A stretch of DNA of 64,000 bases, taken from contig CAWBHS010000004.1 of assembly GCA_963788655.1 (NCBI GenBank), positions 26,349 to 90,348 on the forward strand, written 5' to 3'. Source of the stretch: an uncultured Verrucomicrobiae bacterium. GTDB taxonomy: Bacteria > Verrucomicrobiota > Verrucomicrobiia > Limisphaerales > JAFGQR01. The notes under the pieces were generated by a model. The model was not told the origin of the DNA and made no database searches. It worked only from the letters and a program-made list of their open reading frames with translations. The translations under genes and the position numbers were made by a program. Below, piece by piece: positions 20,101-44,777 of this stretch (position 1 is its first letter; each line of letters opens with the position of its first letter).

Positions 20101-22996
20101 TGAACGAGGTTCTGACCCACACGGATTATCCCTTCGAAGATGCCATCGAATTGTTCAACCGCACCGAGGCAGCCATCGACGTCAGCGGTTGGTTCCTGAG
20201 CGACTCGCGCGATGATTTGAAACGCTTCCGTATTCCGAACGGCACAGTGATTGGCGCCGGTGACTTCGCCGTGTTTTACGAAGTCGATTTCAACACCAAC
20301 AATCCGCTCGTACCGTTCTCGCTCAGTTCGGCCAATGGCGACCAAGTCTATCTCTCCGCCGCGGACGCCAACGGCAACCTGACCGGCTACCAGTCCCGCG
20401 TTGATTTCGGACCGGCGGAGAATGGGGTTTCCTTTGGGCGCTATGAAACGAGCGTGGGCCGCGATTTTACGGCAATGGCCGAACGGACTTTCGGCATGGA
20501 CTCCCCCGCGACAGTTGGCCAATTTCGCTCTGGCACCGGGTTGGTCAACAGCGCGCCGCGCGTGGGTCCGGTGGTGATCAACGAGGTGCTGTTTCATCCG
20601 CCCGACATCGGCGGCACCAACGACAACACCTTTGCGGAGTTCATTGAATTGCATAACGTCACGACGAACAGCGTGACGCTTTACGATTCGGCGTTCCCAA
20701 CAAATACCTGGCGTGTGCGCGGGGGTGTGGACTTTGATTTTCCGCAGGGCACGACATTGCCGTCGCGCGGATACCTGCTGTTGGTGAGTTTCGATCCGAC
20801 CACCAACGCCACCGAGTTGGCGGCGTTCCGCAGCAACTACGGATTGCCTACGAGTGCGACCATCCTGGGTCCCTACGCCGGCAAACTGCAAAACAGCAGC
20901 GAGACGTTGAAGCTCCTCAAACCGGACGCCCCGCAAGGGTCCGGGGCCGGAGGAAGGGCTGGTGCCTTACGTGTTGGTGGATCTGCTGCATTATGGCGAC
21001 GCGTACCCTTGGCCGGTGAGCCCGGATGGCAACGGTGACTCGCTCCAACGACGCCGGCCATTCGACTACGGCAACGATCCGGCCAATTGGAAAGGCGAAC
21101 CTCCGACCGCCGGGCGGGCCAACGTCGCCGCAAGTGATTTCACTGACACCGATGGCGATGGTTTGCCGGACACCTACGAATTGGCCAACAGTTTGAACAT
21201 AAGCGATCCGACTGACGCTGCGGCGGATGCCGACCACGATGGCCGCTCCAATGAGGCCGAATTCCTCGACGGCACGGGACCGCAAAACGCTGCCGATTAT
21301 CTATCAGGTGCCGGCCATTGAAACCGCGCCGGCGGACCGGATCGCATCGGCGGGAACGGTGGTGAACTTCACCGTGACGGCCAATGGCACGGAGCCGTTA
21401 AGCTATCAATGGCGCGTCAATGGATTGGCGATGCCGGGTGCCACGAATGCTTCGTTGACCCTGACCAACGTGCAAGCTTCGGAGGCCGGCGACTACCATG
21501 TGGTCGTTCACAATGCCGCCGGTTTTGTGATCAGTGAAGTCGCCCGACTAACGGTCAATCAACCGCTCGAAATCCTCGCCCAGCCGTTGAGCCAGTACGC
21601 CGATTTGGGCAGCATGGTCACCCTCAATGTGCTGGCTCAGGGCACCGGCACGCTGCGCTATCAGTGGCAACGTGACGGAGTGAATTTGACTGGTGCTACT
21701 AACGCCTCGCTTGTCTTGTCGGAGGTGCAAGCCGGGGATAGCGGCAATTACGCGGTCGTGGTGACGGACGATGTCCAATCGCAGGTTAGTGCCAGCGCCA
21801 CGTTGACGGTGCTGAGTCCGCCCATCATCTTGCAGCAACCGCAAAGTCAGACAGTAGTGGCTTATACCGATGTCTATTTCACGGTGATCGCCGGAGGGCA
21901 AGGACCGTTCGCTTACCAATGGCGGCTCAACGGGGTGAACATTGTGGGCGCCAACAGTGCGATGCTGCAATTGCCCAATGTGCAATCAGGGCAGGCGGGC
22001 AGTTACAGCGTGGAGGTGTCCAATCCGGTCAGTTCGGTCGTGAGCAGCAACGCGCTGCTAACGATTCAAATTCCGGCCACCATTACCGAACAGCCCGTCA
22101 GCCAGATGGTGGATCCGGGAGCAACCGTCACGTTCCGCGTGGTGGCAATCAGCACTTCCACCATGACCTACCAGTGGCGGCTTAACGATCAAGACATCCC
22201 CGGCGCTACGGGCAGCACGTTGACGCTGGCGAACGTACAGGAAGCCGACAGCGGCCAGTACCAAGTGATCGTGACGGACGCGATTGGCTCAGCGGCCAGT
22301 GAAGTCGTGCTTTTGACCGTGTTGACCGCGCCGGCGATAACGCAACAGCCAGTCAGTGTTTCCGTCGTCGAAGGCGGCACCGCGGTGATCAGCGTCGAAA
22401 CCAGCGGGGCGCTGCCGATGGGCTATCGCTGGCGGTTCGGCCATGTCACCATTGAAACGAACCTGGTGTATTCGCACCAATCGTTCCTCACTTTGGAAAA
22501 TGTAACCACCAATGACGCCGGCCTCTACGAAGTCATCATCACCAACATCACCACCGGATTGCCCGGCCTGGCCAAACAGTCGGACCACGCCGAATTGGTT
22601 GTCCTGGCCGACAGCGATCACGACGGCATGCCGGATGTTTGGGAGGATGCTAACGGGCTAAATTCGCAAGACCCGGCCGATGCGGACCGCGACGACGACG
22701 AGGATGAGATGAGCAATTACGAAGAATACTGTGCCGGAACAGATCCCGGCGTCGGCGCCAGTTACTTGCACGTCGCGACGTTGGAGACCGGAGACAGCGT
22801 CACGCTCAATTTCCTGGCGACCTCGAATCGCACCTACACCGTCGAGTACACCGACGGTCTGGACCACGTTCTATGGCTAAAGCTTGCTGACTTGGTGGCG
22901 CATTCGACGAACCAGGTCGAATCCTTGCCTGATCCGCAATGGAATCCCCAGCGTTACTATCGCCTGGCCACGCCGCGGCAGCCCGATCCGGATTGA
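14153..22996 (+). CDS. Giant secreted protein: multiple lamin-tail domains, CotH kinase-like domain, PKD, Ig repeats, DxDxDG Ca-binding repeats (frameshifts near 17335, 20945, 21305)
   Basis: Signal peptide MKFGWW...VRA; repeated (I/F)(N/S)EIMY.P...E(F/Y)IEL motifs; CotH-like WD...KN.YFY...WDSDLAF; Ig repeats YQWR.NG..I.GAT..L...G.Y; stitched from ORFs 13901, 16995, 20962 and 21227. Confidence 0.8.
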
Positions 22997-23574: not shown

Positions 23575-24822
23575 ATGAATCCCAAACGGTTGTTCCCCCC
23601 AATGCTGATGGCGGCACTGGCCTGCTGGCCACTGCTATCTTCAGCGCGACCCCGTCCCCCGCTGCCGCCCTGGCCGGAAGTTTTCCTGCAACGGCTGACC
23701 TTCGACGAACCTTATGCGCTACCTGCAGGGACAGGCGCTGAACGAAGCCCTAGCATTGACGCTTCGACTTGGGTGGAAAGCTGGAGCGGTTACGCCCTGA
23801 ATCGGCAGGATGATCATTTGAACCCGGTCATCATGCCCATGGTCACGACCGAGCAATGGAACGTGGCCCCGGATGCCGGTATCATTCGCTTTTGGTACAA
23901 GAGCGAGTGGACTGCGCCGGGAGTGATGGCCAACGGCGGGCCGGGACATTACGCCCGGCTGGCCGAGTTAATCACCACCACGGACAAAAAGCATCCCGTT
24001 GTTTTCTGGTCGTTGTATTTCTCGCCGGATGGCACCCAGCTTTACCTCAGTGGCGACGGGGCATCGGGGCCGGTGGATTACTTGAAGGCATCCATTTCCT
24101 GGGACAATAGTTGGCATCTGGTGGCCTTGTCATACGGACCGGAGGAAACCTCGTTATGGCTCGATGGCGCGTTGGCCGCACTTGGCCAGGGAATTCCGAG
24201 TGTGCCGATGGCGGCGGCGGGCCTGACCAGCCTGGTCATCGGGTCGGACGCGTCGGGGCGGAATACGGCCGCCGGGCAGATCGAAGAGTTTACCACGTTT
24301 GTCGGTGAACTGCCGATGTGGCAGACGGGATTCGCCTGGTATTTCCAGGCTACATGGGAAACGGCAGCCCAAGGCCCCATCTCCGCGGAAGAAGATGCAG
24401 CGTGGCTGCAACAAGCTGCCGAGTTGCAAGCCCTGCGCGACGCGGGATTGGTGGCGCAAAAGCCAGCCATGCACCCCATGCTGCTGGAATTGGAGACGGG
24501 CTTCTATTTTCTGACGCCGGAGCTTTCCGGCACCAATGTGAATCTGACGCTGGAGAATGGCGAGACCAACAAAGCCTACAATCTGTTGTTCAGCCCGGTC
24601 CTGCCCGCGTCCTACTGGAGCACGGCCATCATCGGCACAATGGGGCAGACCAATTTCACCGTCCCGCTGTCCAACTACGCCGCCTTTTTTCGGGCCGAGG
24701 AAGGGGATGATTGGGACGGCGACGGAATTAAGAACTGGGAGGATGCCGATCCGTCCGATCCGGACGTGGGCATTTTGCAGGTGACCATCGAGGCGCCGGA
24801 GGATGATTCAGTCATTCATTAA
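23575..24822 (+). CDS. Secreted LamG-like (concanavalin A fold) protein with acidic DxDGDG tail
   Basis: Signal peptide; G.IRFWYK, WHLVALSY...LWLDG...LVIGSD...GQIEE; ends 15 nt before the Rhs start. Confidence 0.7.
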   Translation: MNPKRLFPPMLMAALACWPLLSSARPRPPLPPWPEVFLQRLTFDEPYALPAGTGAERSPSIDASTWVESWSGYALNRQDDHLNPVIMPMVTTEQWNVAPDAGIIRFWYKSEWTAPGVMANGGPGHYARLAELITTTDKKHPVVFWSLYFSPDGTQLYLSGDGASGPVDYLKASISWDNSWHLVALSYGPEETSLWLDGALAALGQGIPSVPMAAAGLTSLVIGSDASGRNTAAGQIEEFTTFVGELPMWQTGFAWYFQATWETAAQGPISAEEDAAWLQQAAELQALRDAGLVAQKPAMHPMLLELETGFYFLTPELSGTNVNLTLENGETNKAYNLLFSPVLPASYWSTAIIGTMGQTNFTVPLSNYAAFFRAEEGDDWDGDGIKNWEDADPSDPDVGILQVTIEAPEDDSVIH

Positions 24823-24837
24823 TCAAGCGAGGTAACT

Positions 24838-27800
24838 ATGAAAAGATACTTGTTTTGGCAGAGTTGGATTGGGCTGGTCATCAGCGTTTCCCTGATGTTA
24901 CAGGCGCACGCGCAGACAAACACGGCTCGGACGGGACAGTTTTTCCGGGGAACCGGGAATGATCAGCAATACCACTCATTGGTGGTGGCGTTGGATTTTC
25001 AGAAGGGAATCCCCTTGGACAACATCGGGGGGATTGCCACAAACCTGTTTGATTGGAGTGCGCCCACTTACTACCACTTAAATGCGACGAATGCGGCCAG
25101 CCGGATTCCCTTTGAGAATTCGATTGTCGCTTTTGGGAGTCGGGTGGGAGGCAGCCCGCTCTATGTCGGCAGGAAGTATAGCTGGGGCGTTTACGGTGGG
25201 GAATTCGATCCCGAAATCAGCCCATATCTTTACATCGAAGCCTACTATCGGACGAACTTCGAGTTCACGAATTACTTTTTCCTTTTTCTGCCCAATCATG
25301 CTTTTTACCCTGATTATTGGCGGGACTTCGCGACCAATGGCTTTGCCACGAACCTGACGGAGTTGGGATTGACGGTTCGGGCTTACAATGTGCCTGAGCG
25401 CGCCTGGGGGGTGTCTCCCTACTACAGTTACGTGCTGACGCTGGAAGCGCAACCGGAGGCGACCAACTACATTTTTGATTTCTACTTGCTGGGATACACC
25501 GATCAGGGCGACATGGTGGTGGACGACACCGGTGATTCCGCCTACTCTGATCTATTCACCGCAGAGTTTGACGAGCGCCCTCCAGGGCAGGCCGTTTTCC
25601 TGGACCAACCCCATTTCGATGGGACGCCCTTACCACCCGAGTACGCCGGAAAATCCGTGGAAGAACTCACCAACTTCACGGCCAGTGCGACCAACGCAGT
25701 GTGGCTCACGAATGACACAGGTTATTTGACTGTCGATCAAAGCCCGGAATTGCGCCGCCATCCGCTGTTGGACCAGTTGGTTACTGATTTGCGGAATGAT
25801 CCCTTGGCTTTGACGGCTTATGTGGTGAACGAAATCGAGTTGACCGACGCGTTGGCCTACGGCGAAGACGGCCAGGTGCCGGAGGATTCGGTCAATTTGG
25901 GCGGTGTCAATCGCAGTGCGCTGGGAACGTTCCTCGAAAAGCAAGGCTCGCCAACTGAGCAGTGCGCGTTGTTGGTCTATCTGCTACGCCAGGCCGGTTA
26001 CCCGGCAGCCTACGTCTTCCACCAACAGCAATTTGGAACTGCTGGACTCGCGCTTGAGCAAGCTGCTGCGGATGCAGATTCGCGGAGCCGTAGATGAGTG
26101 GGGAAGTCCTTACACCAGCAACCGCTTGATCACGGTGAACTATCCGTGGGTGGTGGCGAACATTGACAACCGGTGCGTCCACATTTTCCCGTGGCTTAAA
26201 GACACCGAGATCGTCGAAGGATTGGATCTTTATGATTACTTACCCGCGGAATACGACTGCGGCTTCAAGTGGGTGCGTGATTATCTGTATGGAGCCACCA
26301 ACATCCTGGGCCTGAGCGCGGAGCCGACATGCCGCGGGTGTTGTTTCCCAAGTTCGTGGAACAGAGTTTGCTGGACAATTATCCCGGCCTTTCCCTGGAC
26401 GATTTGGGCGTGCGGATCGTGAACCGCCAGCATCAGTATGCGCGGTGGGAAGATTTGCCGCAGCCAAATCTCTTGACCAACCAGAGTCAGGTCGTGGTAC
26501 ACGGAAAGTCTGACGACGGCCACCAATGAACTCCCCTACTTGAGCCAGGTTTTTGACATCATGCGCGTGGAGGTGCTGCGGTCCAGCACGGCCATCCTGG
26601 ACACGGGGGAGCTGCGGATGTGCGATTTGCAAAGCCGCAAATTTCTGTTGTTCACCAACAACAGCCAACTGGTCCTGTGGCTGGCAGCCGTACCAGCCAG
26701 GCGACGACCAACCAATCCTCCTTTGACGCCTCCGATCCGGCGCTGACCAACCGGCAGGTCCTGGTAACGAACGTGCTGGAGAGCGGACAACCAATTCAAA
26801 GTCCGGTTGACCTATCAACGCCACCGGTCATTAACCAACGAGCTGGCCGTGATTCTTAAAGGTGGGGGAAACCCGTGGTTACACCAATGAGTTGATCGTC
26901 ACCAAGCGCGACGTGGCGGCACTTTGCTTCAGCGTCGGGCGCGTGACTCCAGCGATGCTGCAAATCCAAGCCGAAGACTACTGGCGCATAGAACGGCGCA
27001 AAGAAACCAACTCGGCGTACGCCCCGGCCATCGAAGACTACCAGGGGACTGCGGTTTATTTGATGGGGATGAGTTACTTTGAGCGTGCAGGCGAGTTTCA
27101 GCGGCTCAACCAGAATCTCCACAAAGTGCAAATGGTCTCTCGCTTTGCCGAAGGGTTGTCGAAACTCACCACCACCGAAGTCGGCGGCACGACGAAGGTG
27201 CAACCTGGGGTGGATATGCTTCACAACGAAACGGCCATCGCCGGCAACCGCACCGTACATCCGGATTCGGGGGAGGACCCCACCGCGGCTCAAGTCGTTT
27301 CTTTGGCTCGACCTGGCCAGCAGTTCGGCCGAAGAACACGCGATGCTCAACCAATTCTTTGGGGAAACCAATTCGATCTCCACGGTGAAATTGCTCCAAT
27401 TGGCGCAACAGCGCGCTGGTCCGAACCTGCGAAGGGATCGTCCAACTGGACGAGAACAATTACGTGGCGCGAGGAAATCAAGCGTCAACCGATTATGGTG
27501 GCACCTTGCTGAAGGACTATGATCCAGTGGCATGGAACGAGGTAACCTCGGTTTTTAGCCAGAACGAGGCCCGCTTCGCTTTGGTGTATATGACCCCGGC
27601 CGGGATCAGCAACGAGACGGCCTCATACAAAGGCATGGGCACCTTCCTATTCCATCCGCTGGGCGGCATTTCTCTAATTAGCACCAATTTGAACGGCGGC
27701 TACGGCAGTTACAGCCGACTTCCAGGCCGACGCGGGGTCGGAGGACAACTACCTGAACTATTCCTTGTTTACGGCGGACGACAACTCGTTCTACTTCGGC

Positions 27801-30800
27801 CATAACGACCAAGAGGACACTTATTTCCAAAGTTCGTACTCCGCCTACGACGCGAGCCGGTATTTTAATGACACGTGGTCGCTGATACCTTCAATCTTCC
27901 AATACGATACTTCCTGGCAGATCGACGCGCTCTTCAGCTTGGGCGCTCGTCGTTCACCGATTCGGAATGGCGCGCGTACAACAGCGGGTTTTTTGGTCCC
28001 TCAGATTGGGTGGACTCAAAATCGAGTTTTGTTGCCGACCCGGTTAATCCTTTAACCGGCGAGTTCTACATCGACGCCGTGGACCTGTCCTTGCCGGGGC
28101 CGATGCCGCTGCAAATCCGGCGCAATTATCTGAGCCAAAATCGTTCGGAAAACCAGTTCGGCATCGGCTGGAAATGGAGCTTCACCCCCTACCTGGTCGT
28201 GACCACCAACGCGGCGGAAATGCCGATCATCTACGCCGCCGAAATGGCAGGTTCGGTCGTGGCCTATCGCTTCCACACCAACGAGATGTGGCGGCCGGCG
28301 TGGGAAGACAATCCCAGCCTGAACAACAACAACAACGCCGGCATCGGCTCCGTCGCGAACATGATGAATGCCTGGCTGGCGCGGGCCGAAACCAACGGGG
28401 TGGAAACCTACGAGCTCAACACTCCCAATGGGAGTGTGCGCCTTTACGAGACGATGTCCTTTCCGATTGTCACCAGTTCCAACACCCTGGCGCGCACCCG
28501 TCCTTACCTGGTCCGCTGGGAAGACGCCCGCGGTAATTTCTACACGTTCACCTACGGCACCAATGCCAGCGGCGGTGGACTATGGGGAACTTATCCGCAT
28601 CGAGAGCAGCAACGGAGGCTACCTGGGCCTGTATTATGACACCCATGGCCGCATCCGCGAAGCATACACCGGCGATGGCCGCCGGCTGAGCTACCGGTAT
28701 GATAACTATGGCGATCTGGTGCAGGTGACCTTCCCGGACGCGTCGCAAATTGATTACGGATACGCCCAGTACACCTTCACGACCAACAGCCAGACCTTCA
28801 CTGATTCGGACCATCTGCTGGTGCGCGAACTCAAGCCGGACGGGCGGGTCCTGCAAAACGAATATGACCCGCAGCGGCGCGTCACGAATCAATGGGCCAC
28901 CGTCGGGCCGGACCTCCGATTGGTGCGCACCGCGTCGTTCCTCTACACCAACAATTACGATCCGACCAACCTCACGTTGACCCTCACCGGGACCACGACC
29001 CTCCTGGATTACACCAACCGGGCGACGACTTACTGCTACACCAACAGCCTCCTGCGGCGCGTGCGCGATCCGCTGAATTACGAAGCGCTCCAGGAATGGT
29101 ACAAAGTGGGCGAAACCAATCCGCCCGCTTCCCGCGCAGCCTGAAGCAAGTCACCGACCGGCGGGGATTGGTGACCGAATATCAATACGATGAACGCGGC
29201 AACGTGACCAACCAGACCGTGCGCGGCGACTTGCTGGGCGACGGCGATACCAACACCGTGGCCACCCAACGGGCGGTGTTCAACGCACAAAACCTGCCGC
29301 TGCGCATTGAAACCGCTCGCGGCACGACCAACTGGTTTTACTACACGAACACCTGGCTGCTTAGCGGCGTGTCCCAATGGGGCCTCAATGCCACGACGGC
29401 CGAGGCCATCACCAATGGGTACAATATTACAACGTCACCAACACGGTGAGCCTCGGCGGCACGGTGTTTACGAACGTGGCCTTGGGTTTGAAACATCGCG
29501 CCATTCGCGCCGAGGGCACCACCGAGGCGGCCACCGACGAATGGTGGCACGATGGCCGCGGTTGGCCGACGCAACTCCGCTACCCCGGCACCAGCGATTC
29601 GAATGTGGTGACCACCTACTTTTACAGCGACCGGGGCGAGGTCCTGGCCCAAGCCGATGCCGCCGGGCGGAGGACCGAAATGGGCTACGACAACCTGGGG
29701 CGGCCCATCGCGCGCGAAGTGTTCGAGCCCGGAGCCACGGTGCCCCTGGCCTGGGATTACACCTATTACAACGAGAACGGCGAAGTGACCTGGACCGACG
29801 GGCCGCGTTACGATCCGGAGGACTATGTCTGGCGCGATTACGATGGGGCGGGCCGAAGACGGTCGAAATCCACTGGCGCACGCGGGCCAAAGCCGATGGC
29901 AGCGGCGTGGAGGCCGGCGCCGATCCGCTCGCTCCCAACGCTGCCAACGAGCCAGGGGACGACGGGCTGTATGCCACGACCTATTGCGATTACGATCCCT
30001 TTGGCAACCTCGTCCGCGTCACCGATCCACGGGGCAACTATACGCTCAAGATTTATGATGGGCTGAACCGCCTGGTGCGGGAGGAAACGTATGCGGCCGA
30101 CAACACGTTGATGGCGACCAACGGCCTGGCTTACAATGCGGCCGGCGACGTGACGGACCCGTGCAACGGGCTGGGCGCCGCCACCCACAAGCTCTACACC
30201 AGCCGGGGCCAAGTGAAATGGCAGGCCAACGCCGACGGCTCGACCAACGCCTGGACTTATTACGCCGATGGCCGGTTGCGCCGGGAAATCCAGCGCAACG
30301 GCGCGTATTGGGAACCACCTACGACGATGCTGCCCGGACGGTGACGCGCGTGTTCTACACCGCCGGCGACTCGCCGCTCGCGACGAATACCGTCGAGTTC
30401 GACCGGCGGGGCAACGCGGTCCAGGGCACCGATGCCGGCGGTTACACCTGGACGGCCAGCTATGATGGTTTGGACCGGGTGAAAGTGGCGGCGGGACCGC
30501 TGGTGACCAACCTGGTGGCCACCGGCATGGACCCCGAGGAATACACCACCAACCTCATCCAACAAAGCACCACCTACACCTACAGCGCGAGCGACCAGGT
30601 GCTGGCGGTGCAGAACGCTCTGGGTGAAACCACGGTGGCCACCAACGACGCGTTGGGCCGGGTGATCTGGAGCGGCACCTACGCTTCGAACAGCGCCACA
30701 CCGTTGCGCGTGACCAGCACCCTCTATCGGCCGACCACCACAGCGCCACCGTGACCGCCGGTACGGGCGACAATGCCGTCACCCCACGACGTTCACGGAC

Positions 30801-33800
30801 ACCGCGGGCAATCCGTTGTTGACCATCAGTTGCCCCGACACCGGGATCGCCGAATACGCGCTGAGCCGCTACGACGTGGCCGGCAACCGCGACCTGGCAA
30901 GGCCGTTACAGCAACACCAACGGCGCGGTCGACGCTCTGGCAGACCAACGCCTGGACCTCGACGGACTAAACCGCGTGCTGACCGAAACCACCCGCGACG
31001 GCGCGACCACCACCTTCGAGCGGGACGCGCTGGGCGACGTGACCGGCCGGGAAATGCCCAGCGGGCTGACCTGGTCGGCCACCTACACCAGCGACGGGCG
31101 TATCTTGACGGAGCACGATTCGGCGGCACCAACACCACGCGGAGCACGACTTACAGCTATTACGGAAGCGGTGCTCCGTGGTCGGGTAAACTCTACACCG
31201 TGACCGATGGACGGAGCGTTACGCAGACTAACACCTACGATGACTGGTTGCGGGTGGCCAGCGTAACCACCAGCGGGAACGAAGACGAAGAAGAAATGAC
31301 CGTCAGTTGGTCCTACGACGCGCGGGGAATATTAACAAACCTGGTGCAATCCTTCGCCAACACCAACACCGGACCAAACGACCGCCGTACGGCGGGATTA
31401 CGACGCCTACGGCGCGGTGACTGGGAATGGTTGGCGCTCGATGGCGCGACGCCGGGCGCGCGGCATCAAAGCTGGGACAGCGCCGGCCGGCGAAACGGCC
31501 TGCGGCCGGCACCTGGAACGTTCCCTTCGCCTACGGCGCCGACGGCCTGATGACTCAGGCGGGCGAGGCGACCTTCGGTTACGGCGACAATGGATTGCTG
31601 ACCACCCGCACCAACAGCCATCGCACGTCATGGTCACGTCTCGCGATGGAACCGGTCGGCGCTTGGAAACGACCACGACCGCGACAGCAACGACTTGACC
31701 GAGACGTTGACCTGGCGCGGCGACGGCCTGCTGACCGATTACACGGCCACCCGCAGCGACTTCACCGACACGCGGCACTACGCTTATCAGGATTGGAGCC
31801 AACGGTGCTTTAGAAAGCCTGTATCTCGGCAGAGCCAACCGCTGACGAACAATTACGATTACGATCAAGGAACGGCCGGCGGTTTGGGCGTGCTGACGGC
31901 GGCCAGCCAATCCTCGGCCGAACTACCTGGCCAGTGGGGCTTGCCCAGCAGTGGCGGAATGGACGGGTTAAGCCGCGTGGTGCAGGCCACCAACACCGTG
32001 GTCAAGCGCACCGCCCACGGCCAGGTGAATGGCGCGGCGTCTCTACGGGCCGACCTCAATAATCGTCCGCTTGCCATCCGCCACGATTCGACTCAAGCAG
32101 GCCAATGGCTGGCCGACATGGAATTGGTCGCCGGCACCAACACGCTGGAAATCATCGCCGAGCATCCCGAGCCACCAGTTCAGCACGAACACCAGCAGTT
32201 CGTTTACGCTCACCAATGCCGCAGCCGATCTGGCGAATGCACTTATGACGGCAACGGCAATGTCACCCAGCGCGTCTGGAAAAACCACACCAACGGCACC
32301 GTTCGCACGCAGACCCTCACGTGGGATGCGTTCAACCGTTTGGCCGCAGTGACCGAGCGCGATGCCGAGGACCAACGGCTACAACTGGCAAGCCGTCTTC
32401 GATGGCCTGGGCCGCCGCGTGCAAACGCTCGTGACGCTGGTCAGCAACAACACCGAAACGGCTACCGCGACGCTCAACCACTACTACGATCCGAGCGTGG
32501 AGTTCCTGGAAATCGGCGTTTCGGTGAACGGCGTGACAACCTGGAAACTCTACGGTCCTGATGGCGATGGCGGCTACGGCAGCCAGCAAGGCCTTGGTGG
32601 ATTGGAAACGTTGAACACGGGCAGTCCCAACCAGAGCACCGGGCGTCATTCAGGACCACTTCGGCAACGTGCTGGCCGGTATTGCCGGCGGTTCGGTCAC
32701 TTGGGCTGCCGCTCGCCTCACCAGCTACGGTCCAGTCGAAGGAACCCAATTACCGACGCTTTCGTTCACCCCGCTGACCGCCGAGCACCTCGCCTGGCGC
32801 GGCAAGTGGCGCGACGTGACCGGCGACTTCTACTGGGGCGCGCGCCCGTACGATGCGCGCCATCGGGCCTTTATCGCCTTCGACACGGCGGGTCACGCGG
32901 CAACGCCCGACGGTTACTCAGCCTTCGGCGGCAATCCCGTCATGCTCTGGGACCCGGATGCGCGCTGTAATAACACCCCATCTGCCAACGTGCCGATGGT
33001 GCCGTGGCCAGACAGCGCGTTGGACCTCGAGATCGATGATACACTCAGGAATCTGCAAACCATCAACACGGGCTACGCGCTGCGCCGCGAAGCCCAGGAA
33101 GCTTATGCGGCCGACCAAGTGAACCGCGCGCTGTGGGATTACCAACTCAATCAGCAGATTGACCACATGTGGGACCAAACGCCACAACGCGCCTATGCGG
33201 GCGCCGCGTGGCAACAGGAGACCGAGCGTTTACGGTACGAATCGACGCCGACGCCCGATCTAAGTTGGTCCCAGCAGTGGCGCTACGACCCGACCGGAAC
33301 GTTCGATAACGCGCTGGCGACCACGGCGAACATTGTGACCCTGGGGACTGCCAACTCAGCGAGCATCGCTTTCAGCGGGAGTGATTTGTGGGGCAAGGGC
33401 GGTTACTCGACAGGCCAGCGGGCGACTGAGGGATTGTTTCTGGTGAGCATGATCGCGCCGGCAGGTGGACTGGGGCTCAGGGCGGAAGAAGGATTGCTGG
33501 GGGCCGCAGAGGGGTTAGGCAGATATGAGGTTGGGTCATACAACGTGCTGCGCGAAGGAGCGGAAGCTGGCTTGGACGCTCATCACGTCGGGCAGAAGGC
33601 CTTAATGAGGCAATTCGTCGAGGGCTACGACCTCCGAACTGCACCTTCAATCTTAGTTCCAAAAGCTGGTCATACACGTGGCGCAGATGTTCTGTCGCGG
33701 AACATGAGCGGCTTCAACAACGCGCGAGACGTTATCGCAAGAGACATTTGGGAGCTTCGGCGAGTTATCTTGGACATCCCGAACAGCCAGCTTCAGCGTT

Positions 33801-33844
33801 TGATAGAACTGAACAAACAAATGTATCCTGAGGTTAGGAGGTAA
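24838..33844 (+). CDS. Giant Rhs/YD-repeat polymorphic toxin (signal peptide, transglutaminase-like, DUF6531, YD core, HNH-like C-terminal toxin); many frameshifts
   Basis: MKRYLFW...AHA signal; LLRQAGYPAAYV; DPVNPLTGEF...LQIRRNY...FGIGW; YD repeats; GARPYD...NPVMLWDPD; tip LDAHHV...APSILV...GH; stitched from about 15 overlapping ORFs. Confidence 0.85.
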
Positions 33845-33848
33845 TGGT

Positions 33849-34193
33849 ATGACACCCCAGGAATTTGTTTCATGCATTCGGCGCGAGGTTTTGGAAGAGA
33901 GTCTTAAGATGTATCGGCAAAGCCTTGAACGCTCAGCTTCGACTCCGACCGGGCGAGACACATACTGGCCGGAAATGACCGAGTTTTACCAGTCGCTCAA
34001 CGAAGAACAGCGACCGCAGTTTATGGATGGAATCCGGCAGGTACTGGTGGACACTTTGTCCAATGTCTTCGGAATCCTCGACGGCTCGACTCTGCTGGAA
34101 AAGCATCGAGATTACTTCCATCTCACCTATGGCGACGAACCACAAGAACTGAATGGTGAACTCCAAGATCTATTCCTGTCGCCTGAAACCTGA
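33849..34193 (+). CDS. Putative immunity protein for the main Rhs toxin
   Basis: 114-aa ORF 4 nt after the toxin stop, with a GGAGG RBS and composition distinct from the Rhs core. Confidence 0.75.
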   Translation: MTPQEFVSCIRREVLEESLKMYRQSLERSASTPTGRDTYWPEMTEFYQSLNEEQRPQFMDGIRQVLVDTLSNVFGILDGSTLLEKHRDYFHLTYGDEPQELNGELQDLFLSPET

Positions 34194-34214
34194 AAATGCT
34201 GTGAACGAGTAATG

Positions 34215-34469
34215 GAAATGAACTTCACACGCCAACCATAGAAAGGCCCGAGTTGCCAAAAGAAGTTAAAACGCTGGACCAGCTTCTCAGCTACGCACCC
34301 TTCGCAGGCGCAGGAAAGCTCACCTACGTCAGACTGAACATCCCAATGCCCTGCCCGCCTCGTGGCACTGTCCTGGTCAACACAAGGACGTGGTTTTGCG
34401 AGCCTGTTTCATCTCAGCACGCCCGGTTCGCTTTCAGTCAGGGATGCGACCGTTCCAGCTAGGTTGGCG
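34215..34469 (+). repeat. ~250-nt non-coding cassette-boundary element, copy A
   Basis: gaaatgaacttcacacgccaaccatag ... cagctaggttggcg; homologous to 36689-36787 and 40423-40672. Confidence 0.85.
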
Positions 34470-34483
34470 CTTTGGATAAGCCC

Positions 34484-36381
34484 ATGAAGCGCCGGCTTCA
34501 ATTCGTTTTGGTCCTGCTGCTGGCGGCGTCCGCCTTTGGTTACGCTCCATTGGCGAAGCTGACTTTGCCGCACCTTCTGGAGGAACGGTCAGCCCGTCCC
34601 AGCCATCAGTTCAGCACCAATGCGAGCAGTATCTTTACCCTCACCAATGCGGCCGCCGACATGGCCCTCACTACCTACGATGGCAACGGCAACGTAACCC
34701 AACGCGTCTGGAAGGATCACACCAATGGAACTGTCCGCACGCAGACACTCACCTGGGATGCTTTTAACCGTTTGGCCGCAGTGACCGAACGCGACAACGA
34801 GAATCATGGCTACAACTGGCGGGTCGTCTTCGATGGCCTGGGCCGCCGGGTGCAGACGCTCGTGACGCTGGTCAGCAACAACACGCAAACGGCCACCGCC
34901 ACACTCAACCACTACTACGATCCGAGCGTGGAGTTCCTGGAGATCGGCGTTTCGGTTAACGGCGTCACGACCTGGAAACTGTACGGCCCCGATGGCGATG
35001 GCGGCTACGGCAGCCAGCAAGGTCTTGGTGGATTGGAAACGCTGAACACCGTCAGTCCGAACCAGAGCACCGGCGTCATTCAGGACCACTTCGGCAACGT
35101 GCTGGGGAGCGTTGCCGGCGGCTCGGTGAGCTTGGACTGCCGCTCGGCTCACCAGCTACGGTCCCGTCGAAGGAACCCAACTCCCGCGCTTTCGTTCACC
35201 CCGCTGACCGCCGAACACCTGGCCTGGCGCGGCAAATGGCGCGACGTGACCGGCGACTTCTACTGGGGTGCGCGTCCGTACGATGCGCGCCGGCGGGCCT
35301 TTATCGCCTTCGACACCGCGGGCCACGCGGCAACGCCCGATGGCTATTCAGCCTTCGGTGGCAATCCCGTGATGCTCTGGGACCCGGATGGGCGATTGGG
35401 CCAGAACCCGGCGTTTGGAGTGGGCACGAGTTATGGGCCGGGCATGGACATCTTTACCCAGAACGACATCTGGTGGAACAGTTTTCAGCAGCCCGCCACT
35501 GCCGCCAACGACGTATTCACACAAAACCAACAATGGATTGACAGCTACCATCAGCCCAACTGGCTGGCCGGCGGCGGGCGCTTGCTGGGCGGCAATTACG
35601 ACTGGATGGGAAACCCGGTGCCCGAGAGTAGCAGCGGCTACGGCGGCGCGAGTGATCCGTACGCCAACTGGAATGCCACGGTGGACTACAACAATCCGCG
35701 GGATGTCATGGGCGTCTTCCAGCAAGAAGCGTCGCGCACATCGCGCGGCTCCGGCTCGGAACTGAGCTGGTCCCAGCAGTGGCGTTATGACTCGACCCGC
35801 ACGTTTGACAACGCGCTGGCAACCACTGCCAACGTCCTCACCCTGGGCACCGCTAACTCCGCAAGCATCGCCTTTACCGGCAGCGACCTCTGGGGCAAGA
35901 GCGGCTACTCGACGGGCCAAAGGGTCACCGAGGGATTGTTTCTGACCAGCATGATCGCGCCGGTCGGCGGGCTAGGACTTAGGGCGGAAGAGGGATTTTT
36001 GGGGACTGCCGCAAAGCGGCTAGCAACCGGTGCAGACGGAGCGGTTTTCTGGTCGGGAATTGGAAGGGGCGGCGCTGAAAGAGCCGCCACATGGGCGGGA
36101 CAGAACGGAGGAATAACACTCGAATCGACCTTGGCGTACGGGGAATAGCGCTTCCCGCTTGGGATGCGAGCAATCCGGCCTCTGTTGCGGCTTGGCGACA
36201 AGCCTCGACGGATTTCGCTGCCGGCGCGGGAGGAAATGTCCGCGTGCTACAGGGTGATGCTTTGCGTGTTGATGCTATCTGGCGCGATGAGTTCAGAGCG
36301 CTGCAAGCAAATCGCAACGTCAATTCGATACGATCGATAAACCCAAATTCAGGAGCGGAGGTCTTTCTATGGTCGAGATAA
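34484..36381 (+). CDS. Orphan Rhs-CT cassette: signal peptide, Rhs core end, pre-toxin linker and ADP-ribosyl cyclase-like toxin tip (frameshifts near 35130-35180 and 36140)
   Basis: 34598-35390 resembles 32166-32960; WDPDGR; tip AVFWSG, TLESTL, WRQASTDFA, WRDEF. Confidence 0.8.
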
Positions 36382-36682
36382 ACAATCTCAGTTCCCGGCA
36401 GCTTGTTGAGGCAGTTCGGCTTTGGACCGGATGGGGGCAGAGACGCCCAACCGAAACAACAAACGAGTGGTGGATCGTTTCGGGGAGCAGGACGCCGTGA
36501 AGCTGCTTCCTCTAATAAAATCTTTAGAGGAGGACTTTTACGCATCTGATGCGCAGCTTGTTGCCGCCAATCTTCAGGAGATGGAAAAACTGGCCTCCGA
36601 GCATTTCAAGCGAAAGCATCCGACAGCGGCCGAGGAAATCGTCAAGGCGTTCGCGTGGTGCTACACGTTCGACTTCAAATAA
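36369..36682 (+). CDS. Putative immunity protein for the orphan toxin (one frameshift near 36440)
   Basis: ATG overlapping the toxin end reads MVEINNLSSRQLVEAVRLWTGWG and continues in another frame as PNRNNKRVVDRFG...AWCYTFDFK. Confidence 0.7.
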
Positions 36683-36688
36683 ATGAAC

Positions 36689-36787
36689 AAATGAACTTCA
36701 CACGCCAACCATAGCACCCGAGTTGCCAATGAATTTAAAACGCTGGAAAAGCTTCGCGGCTACGAACACTCCTCGACGCGGAGTCAA
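36689..36787 (+). repeat. Cassette-boundary element, copy B (5' ~100 nt only)
   Basis: aaatgaacttcacacgccaaccatagcacccgagttgccaatg ... gacgcggagtcaa, close to copy C. Confidence 0.85.
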
Positions 36788-36794
36788 TGATCCC

Positions 36795-37079
36795 GTGAAG
36801 CGTCGGCTTCAATGCGTTTTGCTCCTGCTGCTGGCGTTGCCAGCTTTTGGTTACATTACGTCACCGATCGTTCGGCCAGACAGCGCGTTGGACCTCGAGA
36901 TCGATGATACACTCAGGAATCTGCAAACCATCAACACGGGCTACGCGCTGCGCCGCGAAGCCCAGGAAGCTTATGCGGCCGACCAAGTGAACCGCGCGCT
37001 TTGGGATTACCAACTCAATCAGCAGATTGACCACATGTGGGACCAAACGCCACAACGCGCCTATGCGGGCGCCAAGTGA
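36795..37079 (+). CDS. Mini-cassette: signal peptide fused to a 200-bp copy of variable region 1 of the main Rhs
   Basis: VKRRLQCVLLLLLALPAFGY, then 36874-37073 equals 33006-33205 with one mismatch seen. Confidence 0.55.
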   Translation: MKRRLQCVLLLLLALPAFGYITSPIVRPDSALDLEIDDTLRNLQTINTGYALRREAQEAYAADQVNRALWDYQLNQQIDHMWDQTPQRAYAGAK

Positions 37080-37362
37080 ATAGGCAACCAATAGCAGGCT
37101 TGTGGCCAGCTTTTCGCCTGGTGGCACCGGCAGCAGCTTCTTGGAGTTCGCGGCCTTGCAACGTTGGCCGGTGCGCCATCTCATGTATTCATCCGAACGT
37201 TCCAACACACGGGCCACCCACATCCAGTGCTGGTCCTCGTCAACCTCGGGAACGCTTCGCTGATCACCGAAGGTTTCCTGCCAACCGAGTTCAAACGCGA
37301 CTGCTGCCGGCTCTGTGGAACCATCTTTTGATGCTCCGATAGCCATAATCAATCTAACCTAA

Positions 37363-37789
37363 ATGAAAATTAAAGCGATGAAGCTAACCGGATTCCTTCT
37401 GGCGCTGTGGGCCGGGCTGTTGACGCTTCCAGCACAACTGGTCGTCACGGTGTTACCACCCAAAATCACTGGCAGCAAAGCGGTGTACCGCTGGCGCTGA
37501 AGAACAACTTTGCGGAAAGCGTAACATCGGCCCGGGCCGGTTGTTCCTATTGGATGAGCATGGCAAGATGGTCGGCCAATCAACGCACTGGATCATTGGG
37601 AACGGGAAGTCCAAAGGGCTAGCGGCAGGCGGTACGAACGCCTTTTACTTTGTCATCACCAGCAACCGGCCCATTGCCACCACCAACCTGACCGCCAAAG
37701 TGTCCTTTACGCGCCTCGTGCTGGAGGACGGCAAGGTGGCCGATCCGGCAAAAGACATTTCCATCGTCAACACCAGCGCGGCCCGTTAA
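37363..37789 (+). CDS. Small secreted beta-rich protein, copy 1 (frameshifted)
   Basis: MKIKAMKLTGFLLALW...AQLVVTV; FLLDEHGKMVGQ...TNLTAKVSFTRLVLE; paralog of 40712-41125. Confidence 0.65.
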
Positions 37790-37801
37790 GCTGCTGTTCT
37801 T

Positions 37802-40449
37802 GTGCGCGGATTTCCGCTCAGCTTGGCTTGGTTGATCTGCTGCGAGGCCGCCGCGTTGGCATGGCCGCGAGCAGAACCGGTTCTCCCGTCTTGCAGCGCC
37901 ATTCAGCCGGACGGGCGCGTCCTGCAAAACGAATACGACCCGCAGCGGCGCGTCACCAATCAATGGGCCACCGTCGGGCCGGACCTCCGATTGGTGCGCA
38001 CCGCGACGTTCCTCTACACCAACAATTACGATCCGACCAACCTCACGCTGACCCTCACGGGGACCACGACCCTCCTGGATTACACCAACCGGGCGACGAC
38101 TTACTGCTACACCAACAGCCTCCTGCGGCGCGTGCGCGATCCGCTGAATTACGAAGCGCTCCAGGAATGGTACGAAGTGGGCGAAACCAATCCGCCCGCT
38201 TACCCGCGCAGCCTGAAGCAAGTCACCGACCGGCGGGGATTGGTGACCGAATATCAATACGATGAACGCGGCAACGTGACCAACCAGACCGTGCGCGGCG
38301 ACTTGCTGGGCGACGGCGATACCAACACCGTGGCCACCCAACGGGCGGTGTTCAACGCACAAAACCTGCCGCTGCGCATTGAAACCGCTCGCGGCACGAC
38401 CAACTGGTTTTACTACACGAACACCTGGCTGCTTAGCGGCGTGTCCCAATGGGGCCTCAATGCCACGGCGGCCGAGGCCATCACCAATGGGTACGAATAT
38501 TACAACGTGACCAACACGGTGAGCCTCGGCGGCACGGTGTTTACCAACGTGGCCTTGGGTTTGAAACATCGCGCCACTCGCGCTGAGGGCACCGCCGAGG
38601 CGGCCACCGACGAATGGTGGCACGATGGCCGCGGGTGGCCGACGCAACTTGTTCGTTACCCCGGCACCAGCGATTCGAATGTGGTGACCACCTACTTTTA
38701 CAGTGACCGGGGCGAGGTTCTGGCCCAAGCCGATGCCGCCGGGCGGAGCACCGAATTGGGCTACGACAACCTGGGGCGGCCCATCGCGCGCGAAGTGTTC
38801 GAGCCCGGAGCCACGGTGCCCCTGGCCTGGGATTACACCTATTACAACGAGAACGGCGAAGTGACCTGGACTGACGGGCCGCGTTACGATCCGGAGGACT
38901 ATGTCTGGCGCGATTACGATGGGGCGGGCCGGAAGACGGTGGAAATCCACTGGCGCACGCGGGCCAAGGCCGATGGCAGCGGCGTGGAGGCCGGCGCCGA
39001 TCCGCTCGCTCCCAACGCTGCCAACGAGCCAGGGGACGACGGGCTGTATGCCACGACCTATTGCGATTATGATCCCTTTGGCAACCTCGTCCGCGTCACC
39101 GATCCACGGGGCAATTATACGCTCAAGATTTATGATGGGCTGAACCGCCTGGTGCGGGAGGAAACGTATGCGGCCGACAACACGTTAATGGCGACCAACG
39201 GCCTGGTTTACAATGCGGCCGGCGACGTGACGGACGCGTGCAACGGGTTGGGCGCCGCCACCCACAAGCTCTACACCAGCCGGGGCCAAGTGAAATGGCA
39301 GGCCAACGCCGACGGCTCGACCAACGCCTGGACTTATTACGCCGATGGCCGATTGCGCCGGGAAATCCAGCGCAACGGCGCGTATTGGGAGACCACCTAC
39401 GACGATGCTGCCCGGACGGTGACGCGCGTGTTCTACACCGCCGGCGACTCGCCGCTCGCGACCAATACCGTCGAGTTCGACCGGCGGGGCAACGCGGTCC
39501 AGGGCACCGATGCCGGCGGTTACACCTGGACGGCCAGCTATGATGGTTTGGACCGGGTGAAAGTGGCGGCGGGACCGCTGGTGACCAACCTGGTGGCCAC
39601 CGGCATGGACCCGGAGGAATACACCACCAACCTCATCCAACAAAGCACCACCTACACCTACAGCGCGAGCGACCAGGTGCTGGCGGTGCAGAACGCCCTG
39701 GGTGAAACCACGGTGGCCACCAACGACGCGTTGGGCCGGGTGATTTGGAGCGGCACCTACGCTTCGAACAGCGCCACACCGTTGCGCGTGACCAGCACCC
39801 TCTATCGCCCGACCACCACAGCGCCACCGTGACCGCCGGTACGGCGACAACGCCGTCACCACCACGACGTTCACGGACACCGCGGGCAATCCGTTGTTGA
39901 CGATCAGTTGCCCCGACAGCGGGATCGCCGAATACACGCTGAGCCGCTACGACACGGCCGGAAACCGCGTCTGGCAAGGCCGTTACAGCAACACCAACGG
40001 CGCGGTCGACGCTCTGGCAGACCAACGCCTGGACTTACGACGGATTAAACCGCGTGCAGACTGAGACTATGCGGGACGGCGCGACCACCACCTTCGAGCG
40101 GGACGCGCTCGGCGACGTGACCAGCCGGGAAATGCCCAGCGGGCTGACGTGGTCGGCTACCTATACCAGTGACGGGCGTATCTTGACGGAGCACGATTCG
40201 GGCGGCACCAACACCGCGCGCAGCACGACTTACAGCTATTACGGAAGCGGTTCTCCGTGGTCGGGCAAACTCTACACCGTGACCGATGGACGGAGCGTTA
40301 CGCAGACTAACACCTACGATGACTGGTTGCGGGCGGCCAGCGTGACTACCAGCGGGAACGAAGACGAAGAGGAAATGACCGTCAATTGGTCCTACGACGC
40401 CCGGGAGGTTGACGAACCTGGTGAAATGAACTTCACACGCCAACCATAG
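37802..40449 (+). pseudogene. Orphan ~2.5-kb fragment of the Rhs YD core
   Basis: 37905-40423 closely matches 28834-31346 with scattered substitutions; no C-terminal toxin; ends at element copy C. Confidence 0.8.
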
Positions 40450-40672
40450 CACCCGAGTTGCCAATGCAGATTAAACGCTGGAACAGCTTCTCGGCTACGA
40501 ACACTCCTCGACGCGGAGTCAAGCTCGCCTACTTCAGACTGAACCGCCAAACGCCCTGCCCGCCTCGTGGCGCTGTCCCGGTTAACCAGGGGCGTGGTTT
40601 CGCGAGTTTCTTGCACCTCAGCACGCCCGGATCGCTTTCGGTCATGGCGGCGACTGCCCAGCTATGTCGGAG
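40423..40672 (+). repeat. Cassette-boundary element, copy C
   Basis: Full-length homolog of 34215-34469. Confidence 0.85.
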
Positions 40673-40711
40673 CACGGAATAAACTCATGGAGATAACTTG
40701 TCAGGGCTAAA

Positions 40712-41125
40712 ATGAGAACGACGATTTGGATACTAATGCTGCTCTTTGAAGCAGCCACTGCGAGCGCGCAATTGACCGTCACCATCTCGCCGGTGAAGCG
40801 AGCCGGCCAGAAGGCCGTGGTGCCGCTGGCGTTGTCCAATGGATTGCCCCAAAAGATTGAATCGGCCCGGGCCGTTTGTTTCCTGCTTGATGAGCACGGA
40901 AAGATGGTCGGCCAAGCCACGCGCTGGGTGATCGGGAACAGGAAGTCCAAAGGGCTCCCGGCGGGCGGCACGAACGCCTTCTTTTTCGTCGTCACGAGTG
41001 CCCGGCCCATTGCCACCACCAACCTGACCGCCAAAGTGTCCTTCACCCGCCTCGTGTTGGAAGGCGGCAAGCTGGCTGATCCGTCGAAAGACATTTCCAT
41101 CGTTAATCCTGGCCCGGCGCGGTAA
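40712..41125 (+). CDS. Small secreted beta-rich protein, copy 2 (intact)
   Basis: Signal peptide MRTTIWILMLLFEAATASA; paralog of 37363-37789. Confidence 0.75.
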   Translation: MRTTIWILMLLFEAATASAQLTVTISPVKRAGQKAVVPLALSNGLPQKIESARAVCFLLDEHGKMVGQATRWVIGNRKSKGLPAGGTNAFFFVVTSARPIATTNLTAKVSFTRLVLEGGKLADPSKDISIVNPGPAR

Positions 41126-41160
41126 ACCGGATTGGAACCGGCTCGCACTAACTTGAGCCA

Positions 41161-41295
41161 GCGTTTGGAGCGTCCGGCTTGCCGGCGCTTTCGGATGCGG
41201 GACGACTACTAAAATCTTGTCGAGCGCTACCTTCCCCGTTGCCGCCGGACCCAATGAAAGCGGGAGCAAGCTCCGCGCACTCCAGACGCTTCGCG
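41161..41295. repeat. Inverted REP-like pair (TGGAG(T/C)G...GCTTT family)
   Basis: gcgtttggagcgtccggcttgccggcgctttc / gaaagcgggagcaagctccgcgcactccagacgc; related copies at 53730 and 59652-59948. Confidence 0.65.
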
Positions 41296-41347
41296 AGGTG
41301 CAGAGGCCGATGGCAACGAATTGCGCTGCGTATTTCTTCGCCTGTAT

Positions 41348-42727: not shown

Positions 42728-44194
42728 TTACAGCAGCTTGAACTGCAGTTCTTCTTTCGCCAACGCCTCCCCCAGGCCCTCGACGCGCGCCCGTCGGCGT
42801 TCGATGATGTGCTTGTCCACATCGGGATCGTAGGGCACCGGATAATTGCCGTCGTAGCAGGCCATGCAAAACGTTCGGCGGGCAAACCGGTGGCCTTGAC
42901 CATGCCGTCCTGCGACAGGTAGTGCAGCGAATCGGCGTTCAGAGTACTGCCGAATTTCGTCCAGTGAATAGTTGGCCGCCATGAGTTTGCTGCGGTCGGG
43001 AAAATCAATGCCATAGACGCACGGATTCATGTGCGGCGGACAACTGACGCAGCACGTGAACTTCCTTCGCGCCGGCTTCCTTGAGGTTGTTCACGCGCGG
43101 CTTTGCAGGTGGTGCCGCGCACGATCGAATCGTCCACGATGATCACGCGTTTGCCCTTCACCAATTCGGGGATGAGGTTCAGTTTCACGCGGACATTGAA
43201 GTCGCGGATGAGTTGGGAGGGTTGGAGAAAACTGCGCCCGACGTAATGGTTGCGCACGAACGCCATTTCGAAGGGGATGCCGGATTCCTGGCGAATAACC
43301 CAGCGCCGCGCAATTGCCGCTGTCCGGCACCGGCACGACCAAGTCGGCGTCCACCGGATTTTCGCGGGCCAGTCTGGCGCCCCATTTCAACGCGCACCTT
43401 ATAAACATTGCGGTCGCCGATGTTGCTGTCCGGCCGGGCGAAATAGACGTATTCGAAAATGCAAAATGCCCGCCGGCGATGTTCGGGAAACGCCTGGATG
43501 CTTTTCAAGCCCTCCTCGTTGATGATGACGATTTCGCCCGGCTCGACGTCGCGGACGAATTTGGCGTGGATCAGGTCCAGCGCGCACGTTTCGCTGGCCA
43601 GCACCCAGGCGTCGTCCAAGCGGCCGATGCACAGCGGCCGAAAGCCGTGCGGATCGCGCACGCCGATGAGTTCCTTTTCGGTCATGATGACCAGCGAATA
43701 GGCGCCTTCAATGCGCCGGATGCTTTGGAGCAGATTGTTCTCCTGGCCGTGCCAGATTGGGCTGGGCCATCATGTGCAGGATGATCTCGCTGTCCACCGT
43801 CGTCTGGAAAATGGAGCCGCGGTTTTCCAATTCCTCGCGCAACTGGGCGGCGTTGGTCAGGTTGCCGTTGTGCGCGATGGCGATTTGCCCGCGGGCGCAG
43901 TCCACGGTGAGTGGCTGGGCATTGCGGACGTGCGAGGAACCGGTGGTCGAGTAGCGGGTATGGCCCACGGCCATCGGGCCGCCCAGTTCCTGGAGAATCG
44001 AGCTGTCGAACACCTGCGAAACCAAACCCATGCCGCGATGCACGCGGAATTGCTTGTCCTCGCAAGTCACGATGCCGGCGCTTTCCTGGCCGCGATGTTG
44101 GAGCGCGTAACAGACCGTAGTACGTCAACTCGGCGGCATTCGGATGACCGTAAATGCCGAAAATACCGCAGTAATGCTTGGGGTAATCTTGCAT
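42728..44194 (-). CDS. purF: Amidophosphoribosyltransferase (several frameshifts)
   Basis: [51 protein letters not shown]. Confidence 0.93.
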
Positions 44195-44768: not shown

Positions 44769-44777
44769 CTGCGGAGG

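Follow-up and report, generated by a model that had tools for sequence, protein, structure and literature searches.

The RHS polymorphic toxins described by Zhang et al. 2012 (PMC3482391) are exported by the Sec/type II secretion system (T2SS) route and, according to the available text of that paper, carry an inactive N-terminal transglutaminase domain. A related Rhs locus was analyzed here at positions 23575–41125 of a 64,000-nucleotide (nt) stretch from an uncultured Verrucomicrobiae bacterium (assembly GCA_963788655.1, contig CAWBHS010000004.1), referred to as the window, the numbering of which is used throughout. A first-pass annotation had read the locus as a LamG-like partner, a large Rhs toxin, immunity genes, an orphan toxin module, small secreted proteins and a repeated element, and all these parts were found in the places and in the order in which it had put them. 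Like the toxins of that paper, the Rhs protein combines a signal peptide, a transglutaminase-like domain with an incomplete triad, RHS repeats, a variable C-terminal toxin and a putative downstream immunity gene; unlike in those toxins, the transglutaminase-like domain lies several hundred residues past the signal peptide rather than immediately after it. No signature gene is listed for the Sec/T2SS route in the available text, whereas the present locus has an upstream partner, an immunoglobulin (Ig)-like insert in the shell, a small secreted protein and the element. The claim that the combination was undescribed thus held in part: the toxin type and the orphan array are of known kinds, and a literature search, with subscription papers thinly covered and with Zhang 2012 supplements that may list such neighbourhoods, returned no account of the partner, insert, small protein or element.

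Other described systems share single features with the locus. The rhs C-terminal displacement arrays of Jackson et al. 2009 (PMC2935791) likewise have core fragments near-identical to the upstream gene, arranged in direct repeat and bearing unrelated tips; most fragments there, as far as the available text goes, have no start, whereas at least 10 here have a signal-peptide-like leader joined in frame, with a structured element ahead of it. Bacterial teneurin-like proteins (bioRxiv 10.1101/2025.11.11.687626) are also large YD-shell toxins that begin with a signal peptide, vary in their N-terminal adhesion domains and enclose the tip, but they are defined by an FN-plug and NHL, neither of which was reported by Pfam on eight full-length relatives of the present toxin, and their description in its available text mentions neither Verrucomicrobia nor transglutaminase nor a separate docking partner. 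Listeria LrhA–LxpABC (PMC10327511) shares DUF6531, Rhs repeats and small dedicated partner proteins, whereas the available account links LrhA to the type VII system via a helical N-terminal region and not via a signal peptide and a strand-donating partner. In chaperone-usher pili, TapA–TasA and archaeal cannulae a donated strand completes the incomplete beta-sandwich or Ig-like fold of another protein; as described in the accounts available, these build filaments, whereas here a single C-terminal strand is predicted to dock on a toxin-shell domain, and no usher or chaperone gene is present in the locus.

Upstream partner and Ig-like insert of the toxin shell

Relatives of the locus (L-numbers) were retrieved as the top 80 matches each from genomes (of 121) and from metagenomes (of 282), some of them duplicates; a contig search with a single-protein query matched nothing and an alignment-based scan recovered the family. 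The 96 frames over 2,800 amino acids (aa) were taken as complete Rhs. We favour, with moderate confidence, a polymorphic Rhs locus, likely Sec-exported, in which the upstream partner donates a missing strand to the Ig-like insert of the shell and acts as an export or anchoring adaptor. This reading builds on what was observed directly, namely how the domains are laid out, that tail and insert occur together and match Ig domains in a complementary way, that the tips are variable and of toxin families, and that cores are duplicated; docking of the tail on the insert is well motivated by sequence and fold and weakly supported by co-folding.

The partner (23575–24822, 415 aa; Pfam Laminin_G_3; all coding features of the locus are on the plus strand) consists of a signal-peptide-like start, LamG, a C-terminal-type domain (24511–24702) predicted to form a small beta-sandwich, a calcium-binding-like DxDxDG loop and a putative donor-strand tail (24772–24822) corresponding to the predicted first strand of an Ig domain. 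A partner is conserved upstream of the relatives as had been proposed, its conserved part being the last ~100 residues and not the LamG for which it had been named: LamG of the window type was matched in 10 of 160 loci and a different LamG in three others checked by Pfam, and LamG is an optional part of the partner. The tail, a hydrophobic strand followed by a proline and then some five further residues, ends the adjacent upstream gene in 137 of the 152 loci with enough upstream DNA, with the stop codon at a conserved distance after it. Overall, the same pattern was present in 267 of 8,478 plus-strand open reading frames (ORFs), the 137 included, so that the co-occurrence check suggested at first pass came out in favour of the partner. 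Partners are mostly about 140 aa long (96 of 130 being 200 aa or shorter and 13 exceeding 350 aa), with a signal-peptide-like start in 121 of the 130 and with widely varying N-termini, some of which carry LamG, CBM96 or Big_7; some distant partners have no C-terminal-type domain and keep the tail. No sigma-70-like promoter was found upstream of the partner, and a second partner copy is present on contig C70 of the host genome (G000, with its contigs given as C-numbers).

The C-terminal-type domain of the partner is homologous (HH probability 93%, E 3e-7, against the alignment of the terminal domain) to an unnamed domain of ~70 aa that ends about 166 proteins of the host genome, an example being encoded at 22800–22996; 166 of its 189 matches in that genome lie within 15 aa of the C-terminus. 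No NCBIfam model covered this terminal domain in the proteins scanned and no paper naming it was found in the literature search; it is a candidate sorting signal of Verrucomicrobia. When the partner was modelled alone, the C-terminal-type domain formed a small beta-sandwich with FN3-like matches at Z about 5–6 and the tail had no secondary structure.

An Ig-like insertion of ~80 residues is present inside the shell of 89 of 96 complete Rhs and was located in the window at 31977–32225 (family profile E 3e-18, with one frame break inside). The insert of a relative was modelled as Ig-like with a predicted local distance difference test (pLDDT) value of 83, and this model aligned to solved Ig domains, at Z up to 8, from their residue 14–32 onward only. 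Neither the insert model nor the partner model had a Foldseek match at E 0.001 or better. By model and profile, the insert is an Ig fold that lacks its first strand. The first Ig template had been chosen by a tail-like motif, which is circular, and the comparison was redone with templates chosen by an F-strand motif. Against these complete Ig domains of the host genome, the insert covered positions 45–96 (probability 72) and the tail aligned to positions 11–26, while tail and insert joined covered positions 13–96 with a probability of 94.8 and an E of 5e-8. With the first template set, shuffled tails reached at most 33.7 compared with 42.4 for the real tail. The partner of one relative, L124, is a chain of Big_7 domains that ends after the first strand of the next.

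Among 91 complete loci, 83 have both tail and insert, six have neither and two have the insert only. Co-folding of the tail-bearing partner with the insert gave 0.32 against 0.00 for the best control, with at least 94% of contacts agreeing between runs and a partner pLDDT of 54–57. The mark applied was reached by 116 of 157 solved pairs and 2 of 215 mismatched pairs; those reaching it at 0.60 or under comprise only 18 solved pairs and both mismatches, and the co-folding result is taken as weak model-based support for docking.

Further Rhs types in the host genome were examined by inspection. At C60:333628–345000, C48:35400–45400, C95:1–3668, C89:6000–14926, C109:37276–60138 and C87:300–8927, at least three further types have a beta-rich insertion at the matching place of the shell, and the assembled upstream genes encode secreted partners ending in a short strand-plus-proline tail. 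Compared by profile, these inserts showed no significant similarity to the family insert or to complete Ig domains, two of the six extractions being too long. A transglutaminase-Rhs type at C93:3–13900 has no insertion, and its partner ends in a YD-repeat-like stretch instead of a strand-plus-proline tail, a possible second docking mode; this Rhs is followed by two orphans with signal-peptide leaders and several element copies.

Toxin family, export and reading frame

The Rhs toxin gene (24838–33844) has about 3,000 codons and belongs to a family present in 25 of 401 genomes of the order. Its N-terminal piece has 63 longer homologues, the named ones being from Verrucomicrobia and Parachlamydiaceae; contigs L007, L013, L016, L031 and L039, labelled Pseudomonadota or Bifidobacteriaceae, carry typical family members and are likely mislabelled. 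The family layout is a signal peptide, optional adhesion modules, a conserved N-domain, a transglutaminase-like domain, DUF6531, the RHS shell and the tip, with matches to RHS repeats and the RHS-associated core (PF05593, TIGR01643, TIGR03696) and a DPxG-type core end motif in 92 relatives. Between the signal peptide and the transglutaminase-like domain lies the conserved N-domain of about 330 aa, often with RCC1, Calx-beta or other modules. The transglutaminase-like domain matches PF01841 at E 6e-4 to 0.05, under the cut-off, with an invariant Cys; the His and Asp positions of the triad appear replaced when compared by eye with the known motif.

The 92 distinct tips include 27 with a Pfam match, mostly to toxin families, among them WHH and NS_2 nucleases, TNT, ART, a deaminase and Tle1. 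Tip 1 of the window (33482–33844) had no direct Pfam match and has 117 homologues, including Rhs tips, one of which carries PF15652; from these homologues it is predicted to be a Tox-SHH-like HNH nuclease. It is followed by a predicted immunity protein of 114 aa (33849–34193), so assigned by position, which had no significant family match. Tip 2, that of the orphan module, matches PDB 9ro8 (E 1e-11) and 9ouf (E 4e-13) and is predicted to be a CD38-like NADase of ADP-ribosyl-cyclase fold, similar to the ARC (CD38-fold) NADase toxins (PMC12605009); compared with those toxins as given in the available text, the delivery module is different and the present copy is a frame-broken orphan, its activity being predicted only. 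Immunity protein 2 (36369–36682; family length about 105 aa, with a frame break near the 5′ end) has 137 homologues, none of them named, and one copy is found downstream of the Rhs of relative L033.

Signal-peptide-like N-termini were detected in 90 of 92 complete Rhs compared with 19 of 460 control windows, using our own hydropathy heuristic and not SignalP, in agreement with the Sec-type signal peptide assigned at first pass. The absence of VgrG and PAAR noted earlier for the window extends to the 86%-complete genome, in which no match to VipB (PF05943), VgrG (Phage_GPD, PF05954) or PAAR (PF05488) was found while the positive controls matched. The predicted Sec export of the Rhs and the lack of matches to these markers in the genome support the proposal of delivery independent of the type VI system. 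Secretins gave eight matches in the genome; ShlB/TpsB and SprA, markers of two-partner (CDI) and type IX export, gave none, their positive controls being likewise unmatched.

The reported single ORF of ~3,000 aa is not present in the sequence as assembled, where the gene is frameshifted. A frameshift-aware alignment to a profile of 16 relatives found the frame broken 31 times in 8.1 kb, with no in-frame stops, whereas two intact relatives outside the profile, used as controls, gave no breaks and no stops; intact open frames in relatives span 2,974–3,970 aa. Breaks were also found in the orphan, the second immunity gene, the first small gene and the core fragment. These breaks are probably assembly errors, as argued by three lines of sequence comparison. 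Two of five conserved genes of the window, purF and another (42728–44302 and 48042–50133), are broken alike, each of them eight times and with no stops (16 breaks in 7.3 kb), which points to poor local assembly; codon differences between duplicated copies are synonymous in 91 cases and non-synonymous in 30; and C48 carries intact, C95 broken versions of near-identical Rhs genes.

Orphan array, junction element and small secreted protein

Downstream of the first immunity gene and a first element copy (34216–34475) lies the orphan module (34484–36381), made of a signal-peptide-like leader, a displaced core end, a pre-toxin region and tip 2, with a frame break near 36140. Its core end (34598–35394) is 88% identical to the main Rhs, and the leader is joined to it in frame. 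After immunity gene 2 come a second element copy, of which only the 5′ 100 nt are present (36689–36787), and a mini-cassette (36795–37079) in which the leader of the orphan is joined in frame to a 99% copy of 33006–33210. A third, diverged element copy (37085–37317), which had escaped the first-pass annotation and is present on contig C70 too, was recovered with an iterated profile (E 2e-18) built on loci that include the host genome's own copies; the matches that it gives as a lone query, in L096 and L234, fall where the first profile had already called the element. The array continues with small secreted protein copy 1 (37363–37789), which is frame-broken, 83% identical to copy 2 and has an intact twin on C70, and with a displaced core fragment (37802–40427) that has a hydrophobic leader and no tip and is 97% identical to 28834–31350. 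Element copy 4 (40423–40676) and small secreted protein copy 2 (40712–41125, 137 aa) end the locus. The same layout of Rhs, small gene, leader-orphan and small gene is found in relative L227, and the locus is, as first read, an orphan array punctuated by the element.

C-terminal displacement is the most likely way in which the array grew. In this process, incoming DNA would bring a core end, a tip, an immunity gene, the element and the start of the next secreted gene, and its insertion would push older ends downstream and leave signal-peptide leaders fused to old core fragments. Immediately after the element a signal-peptide start is often found, which leads either into the small protein or, in at least 10 cases, into an Rhs fragment, with in-frame cases only being counted. 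This pattern fits C-terminal displacement as in the described arrays (PMC2935791), one of the junctions falling within the secreted gene downstream of the element. Short toxin cassettes that lack an RHS core but have signal-peptide-like leaders of their own, stacked next to immunity genes, were also observed at L226:8490–11482, L232 (minus strand), C48:36684–39107 and C93:7073–7726.

The element is about 245 nt long, with sharp ends and no conserved reading frame. About ten top mutual-information column pairs are almost all Watson–Crick covarying, two-sided changes occur in 19 of 28 pairs compared with at most nine when the pairing is slid, and the wobble pairs favour the minus strand; no Rfam 15 match was obtained at E up to 1–2 in the window and 16 loci. 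It is real and is placed at cassette junctions, as first noted; it is noncoding and not specific to this Rhs system, being found in 96 of 401 genomes of the order and in 12 of 301 across the phylum. The host genome has 15 profile matches. In 14 of 89 family loci the element lies downstream of and co-oriented with the Rhs, and in none is it upstream or reversed. Of 29 other element contexts, about half are toxin–immunity ends or Rhs fragments by our own reading, four of these being Pfam-confirmed, with unrelated genes making up the remainder; Rhs modules account for five of 12 distant contexts, and in the distant genomes L283, L285 and L293 the element flanks orphan Rhs modules. It is considered a candidate structured RNA class tied to toxin cassette ends. 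In L287 and L289 it comes right after housekeeping genes (pyruvate phosphate dikinase-like and rpoC-like) with no toxin nearby.

Several assignments of the element were considered. A SymE-like or other ORF was rejected, as its indels are not in threes and no Pfam match was found. Integron attC sites have ends RYYYAAC and GTTRRRY that pair into one hairpin with L boxes; an attC identity was rejected since, with the 5′ AAC invariant, the 3′ end is mostly GTC and the ends are unpaired in the consensus fold of either strand. Likeness to a group II intron, an IS110 bridge RNA or HEARO was considered and appeared unconvincing.

Of the 89 loci for which at least 1.5 kb of downstream sequence was available, 53 have the small secreted protein, located 291–2,101 nt past the Rhs stop; it was not found within the retrieved flank of the other 36. 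Conserved partners, in line with the first-pass proposal, thus occur on both sides of the Rhs. The small protein is present in 21 of the 401 genomes; besides the host, 15 of these 20 genomes carry the Rhs too, and an Rhs core lies beside it in four further regions (L236, L239, L240 and L241). Its homologues form 268 clusters, the best 150 all being 374 aa or shorter; DUF3426 was matched in 9 of 59 members (best E 0.002), the Atlas neighbours are unnamed and no solved relative was found. From sequence it appears to be a stand-alone unnamed family, at most weakly Ig-like, and may act as a periplasmic or surface helper, a role that is the least constrained part of the account.

Proposed mechanism, alternatives and flanking features

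In the strand-donation reading, Rhs and partner would both reach the periplasm by Sec, the partner tail would complete the Ig fold of the shell insert, and the C-terminal-type domain of the partner would supply a surface or secretion signal, provided in trans because the toxin occupies the Rhs C-terminus. The tip would then be cut at the DPxG motif and poison neighbours, with the product of the next gene protecting against it. Were this so, it would be a new way of clipping Rhs toxins to an export or anchoring helper, bearing on the largely open question of how Gram-negative signal-peptide Rhs toxins exit the cell and are retained at its surface without a type VI system. The predicted binding pair, conserved in about 140 loci, is made up of a tail of 15 residues and an insert of 80; if the two bind, a new trafficking logic for polymorphic toxins would follow and a common unnamed C-terminal domain of Verrucomicrobia proteins would be pointed to as a sorting signal. 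More tentatively, one undescribed principle may serve several unrelated Verrucomicrobia Rhs types, with an adaptor bearing the phylum's C-terminal sorting-type domain locking onto a strand-deficient Ig handle outside the shell, and with a phylum-wide RNA or single-stranded DNA (ssDNA) element that marks cassettes, may drive their capture and gives orphans signal peptides.

Several points tell against the favoured account, in which strand donation is joined to an assembly origin of the frame breaks. The secretion role of the C-terminal-type domain is one that we infer; L116 has an insert without an adjacent tail, and L051, one of the six loci with neither feature, has a diverged insert-like stretch and no tail. 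The retrieved loci are not independent, some being duplicated, and the five others of these six form, together with L064, one clade (support 90/88), so that joint absence amounts to about one independent event. The co-folding pass is weak and yields no interface, and resemblance to solved Ig domains may be behind it. The Rhs has 3.8 breaks per kb, more than 17 genes sampled across the genome (14 breaks in 20.8 kb), and real decay may account for some of them.

It is unlikely that strand donation serves only the folding of the Rhs or the addition of interchangeable adhesion domains (LamG, Big_7, TSP3-like repeats), with the outer membrane crossed by the general type II route. The varied partner N-termini, the eight secretin matches and the distant partners that keep the tail without the C-terminal-type domain would all suit this arrangement, whereas most partners consist of little beyond signal peptide, C-terminal-type domain and tail, which suggests that the domain matters. 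Docking of the tail elsewhere, on the Rhs N-terminal region, the small downstream protein or another partner copy, with the insert as a self-sufficient small beta-sandwich, appears quite improbable: tail and insert occupy contiguous registers on complete Ig domains, are jointly absent in one clade, and the small protein is missing from the retrieved flank of many loci, even if the insert folds alone, the co-folding score is low and the small protein is weakly Ig-like.

Two further alternatives concern the array rather than the partner. The locus of the host strain could be a decaying pseudogene array, whatever the family does elsewhere, as the frame breaks in the Rhs, the tip-less core fragment, the truncated element, the truncated sister locus on C70 and the presence of only three long ORFs over 9 kb in the upstream secreted-protein region would indicate; it is improbable given the lack of in-frame stops, the similar break rate of purF, the synonymous excess between copies and the intact counterpart on C48 of the broken gene on C95. 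That the element is a mobile or recombinogenic structured RNA or ssDNA that itself drives cassette capture at junctions, and is not a passenger, is a doubtful proposition. Its sharp ends, its 15 matches in the host genome, its constant position and orientation relative to family Rhs, the flanked orphan modules of distant genomes and its covariation fit such a driver, but no linked recombinase or reverse transcriptase was seen in 41 element contexts, non-toxin genes make up about half of the contexts, single copies show no folding advantage over shuffles (z-scores about 0) and the two ends lack the pairing known from attC.

Directly upstream of the partner, positions 13901–22996 hold a very large secreted-protein region in three long ORFs, with lamin-tail domains, CotH kinase, PKD and Ig repeats. 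Just past the locus, at 41132–41300, a different repeat of ~140 nt has well over 100 BLAST matches across the genome and looks like a repetitive extragenic palindromic (REP)- or miniature inverted-repeat transposable element (MITE)-type element, and a cluster of inverted repeats of 29–49 nt lies at 44356–44774. The sister locus (C70:40662–44834) has an 86% identical partner and then an Rhs start with RCC1 repeats that is cut off after the N-domain begins, followed by the diverged element and an intact small gene.

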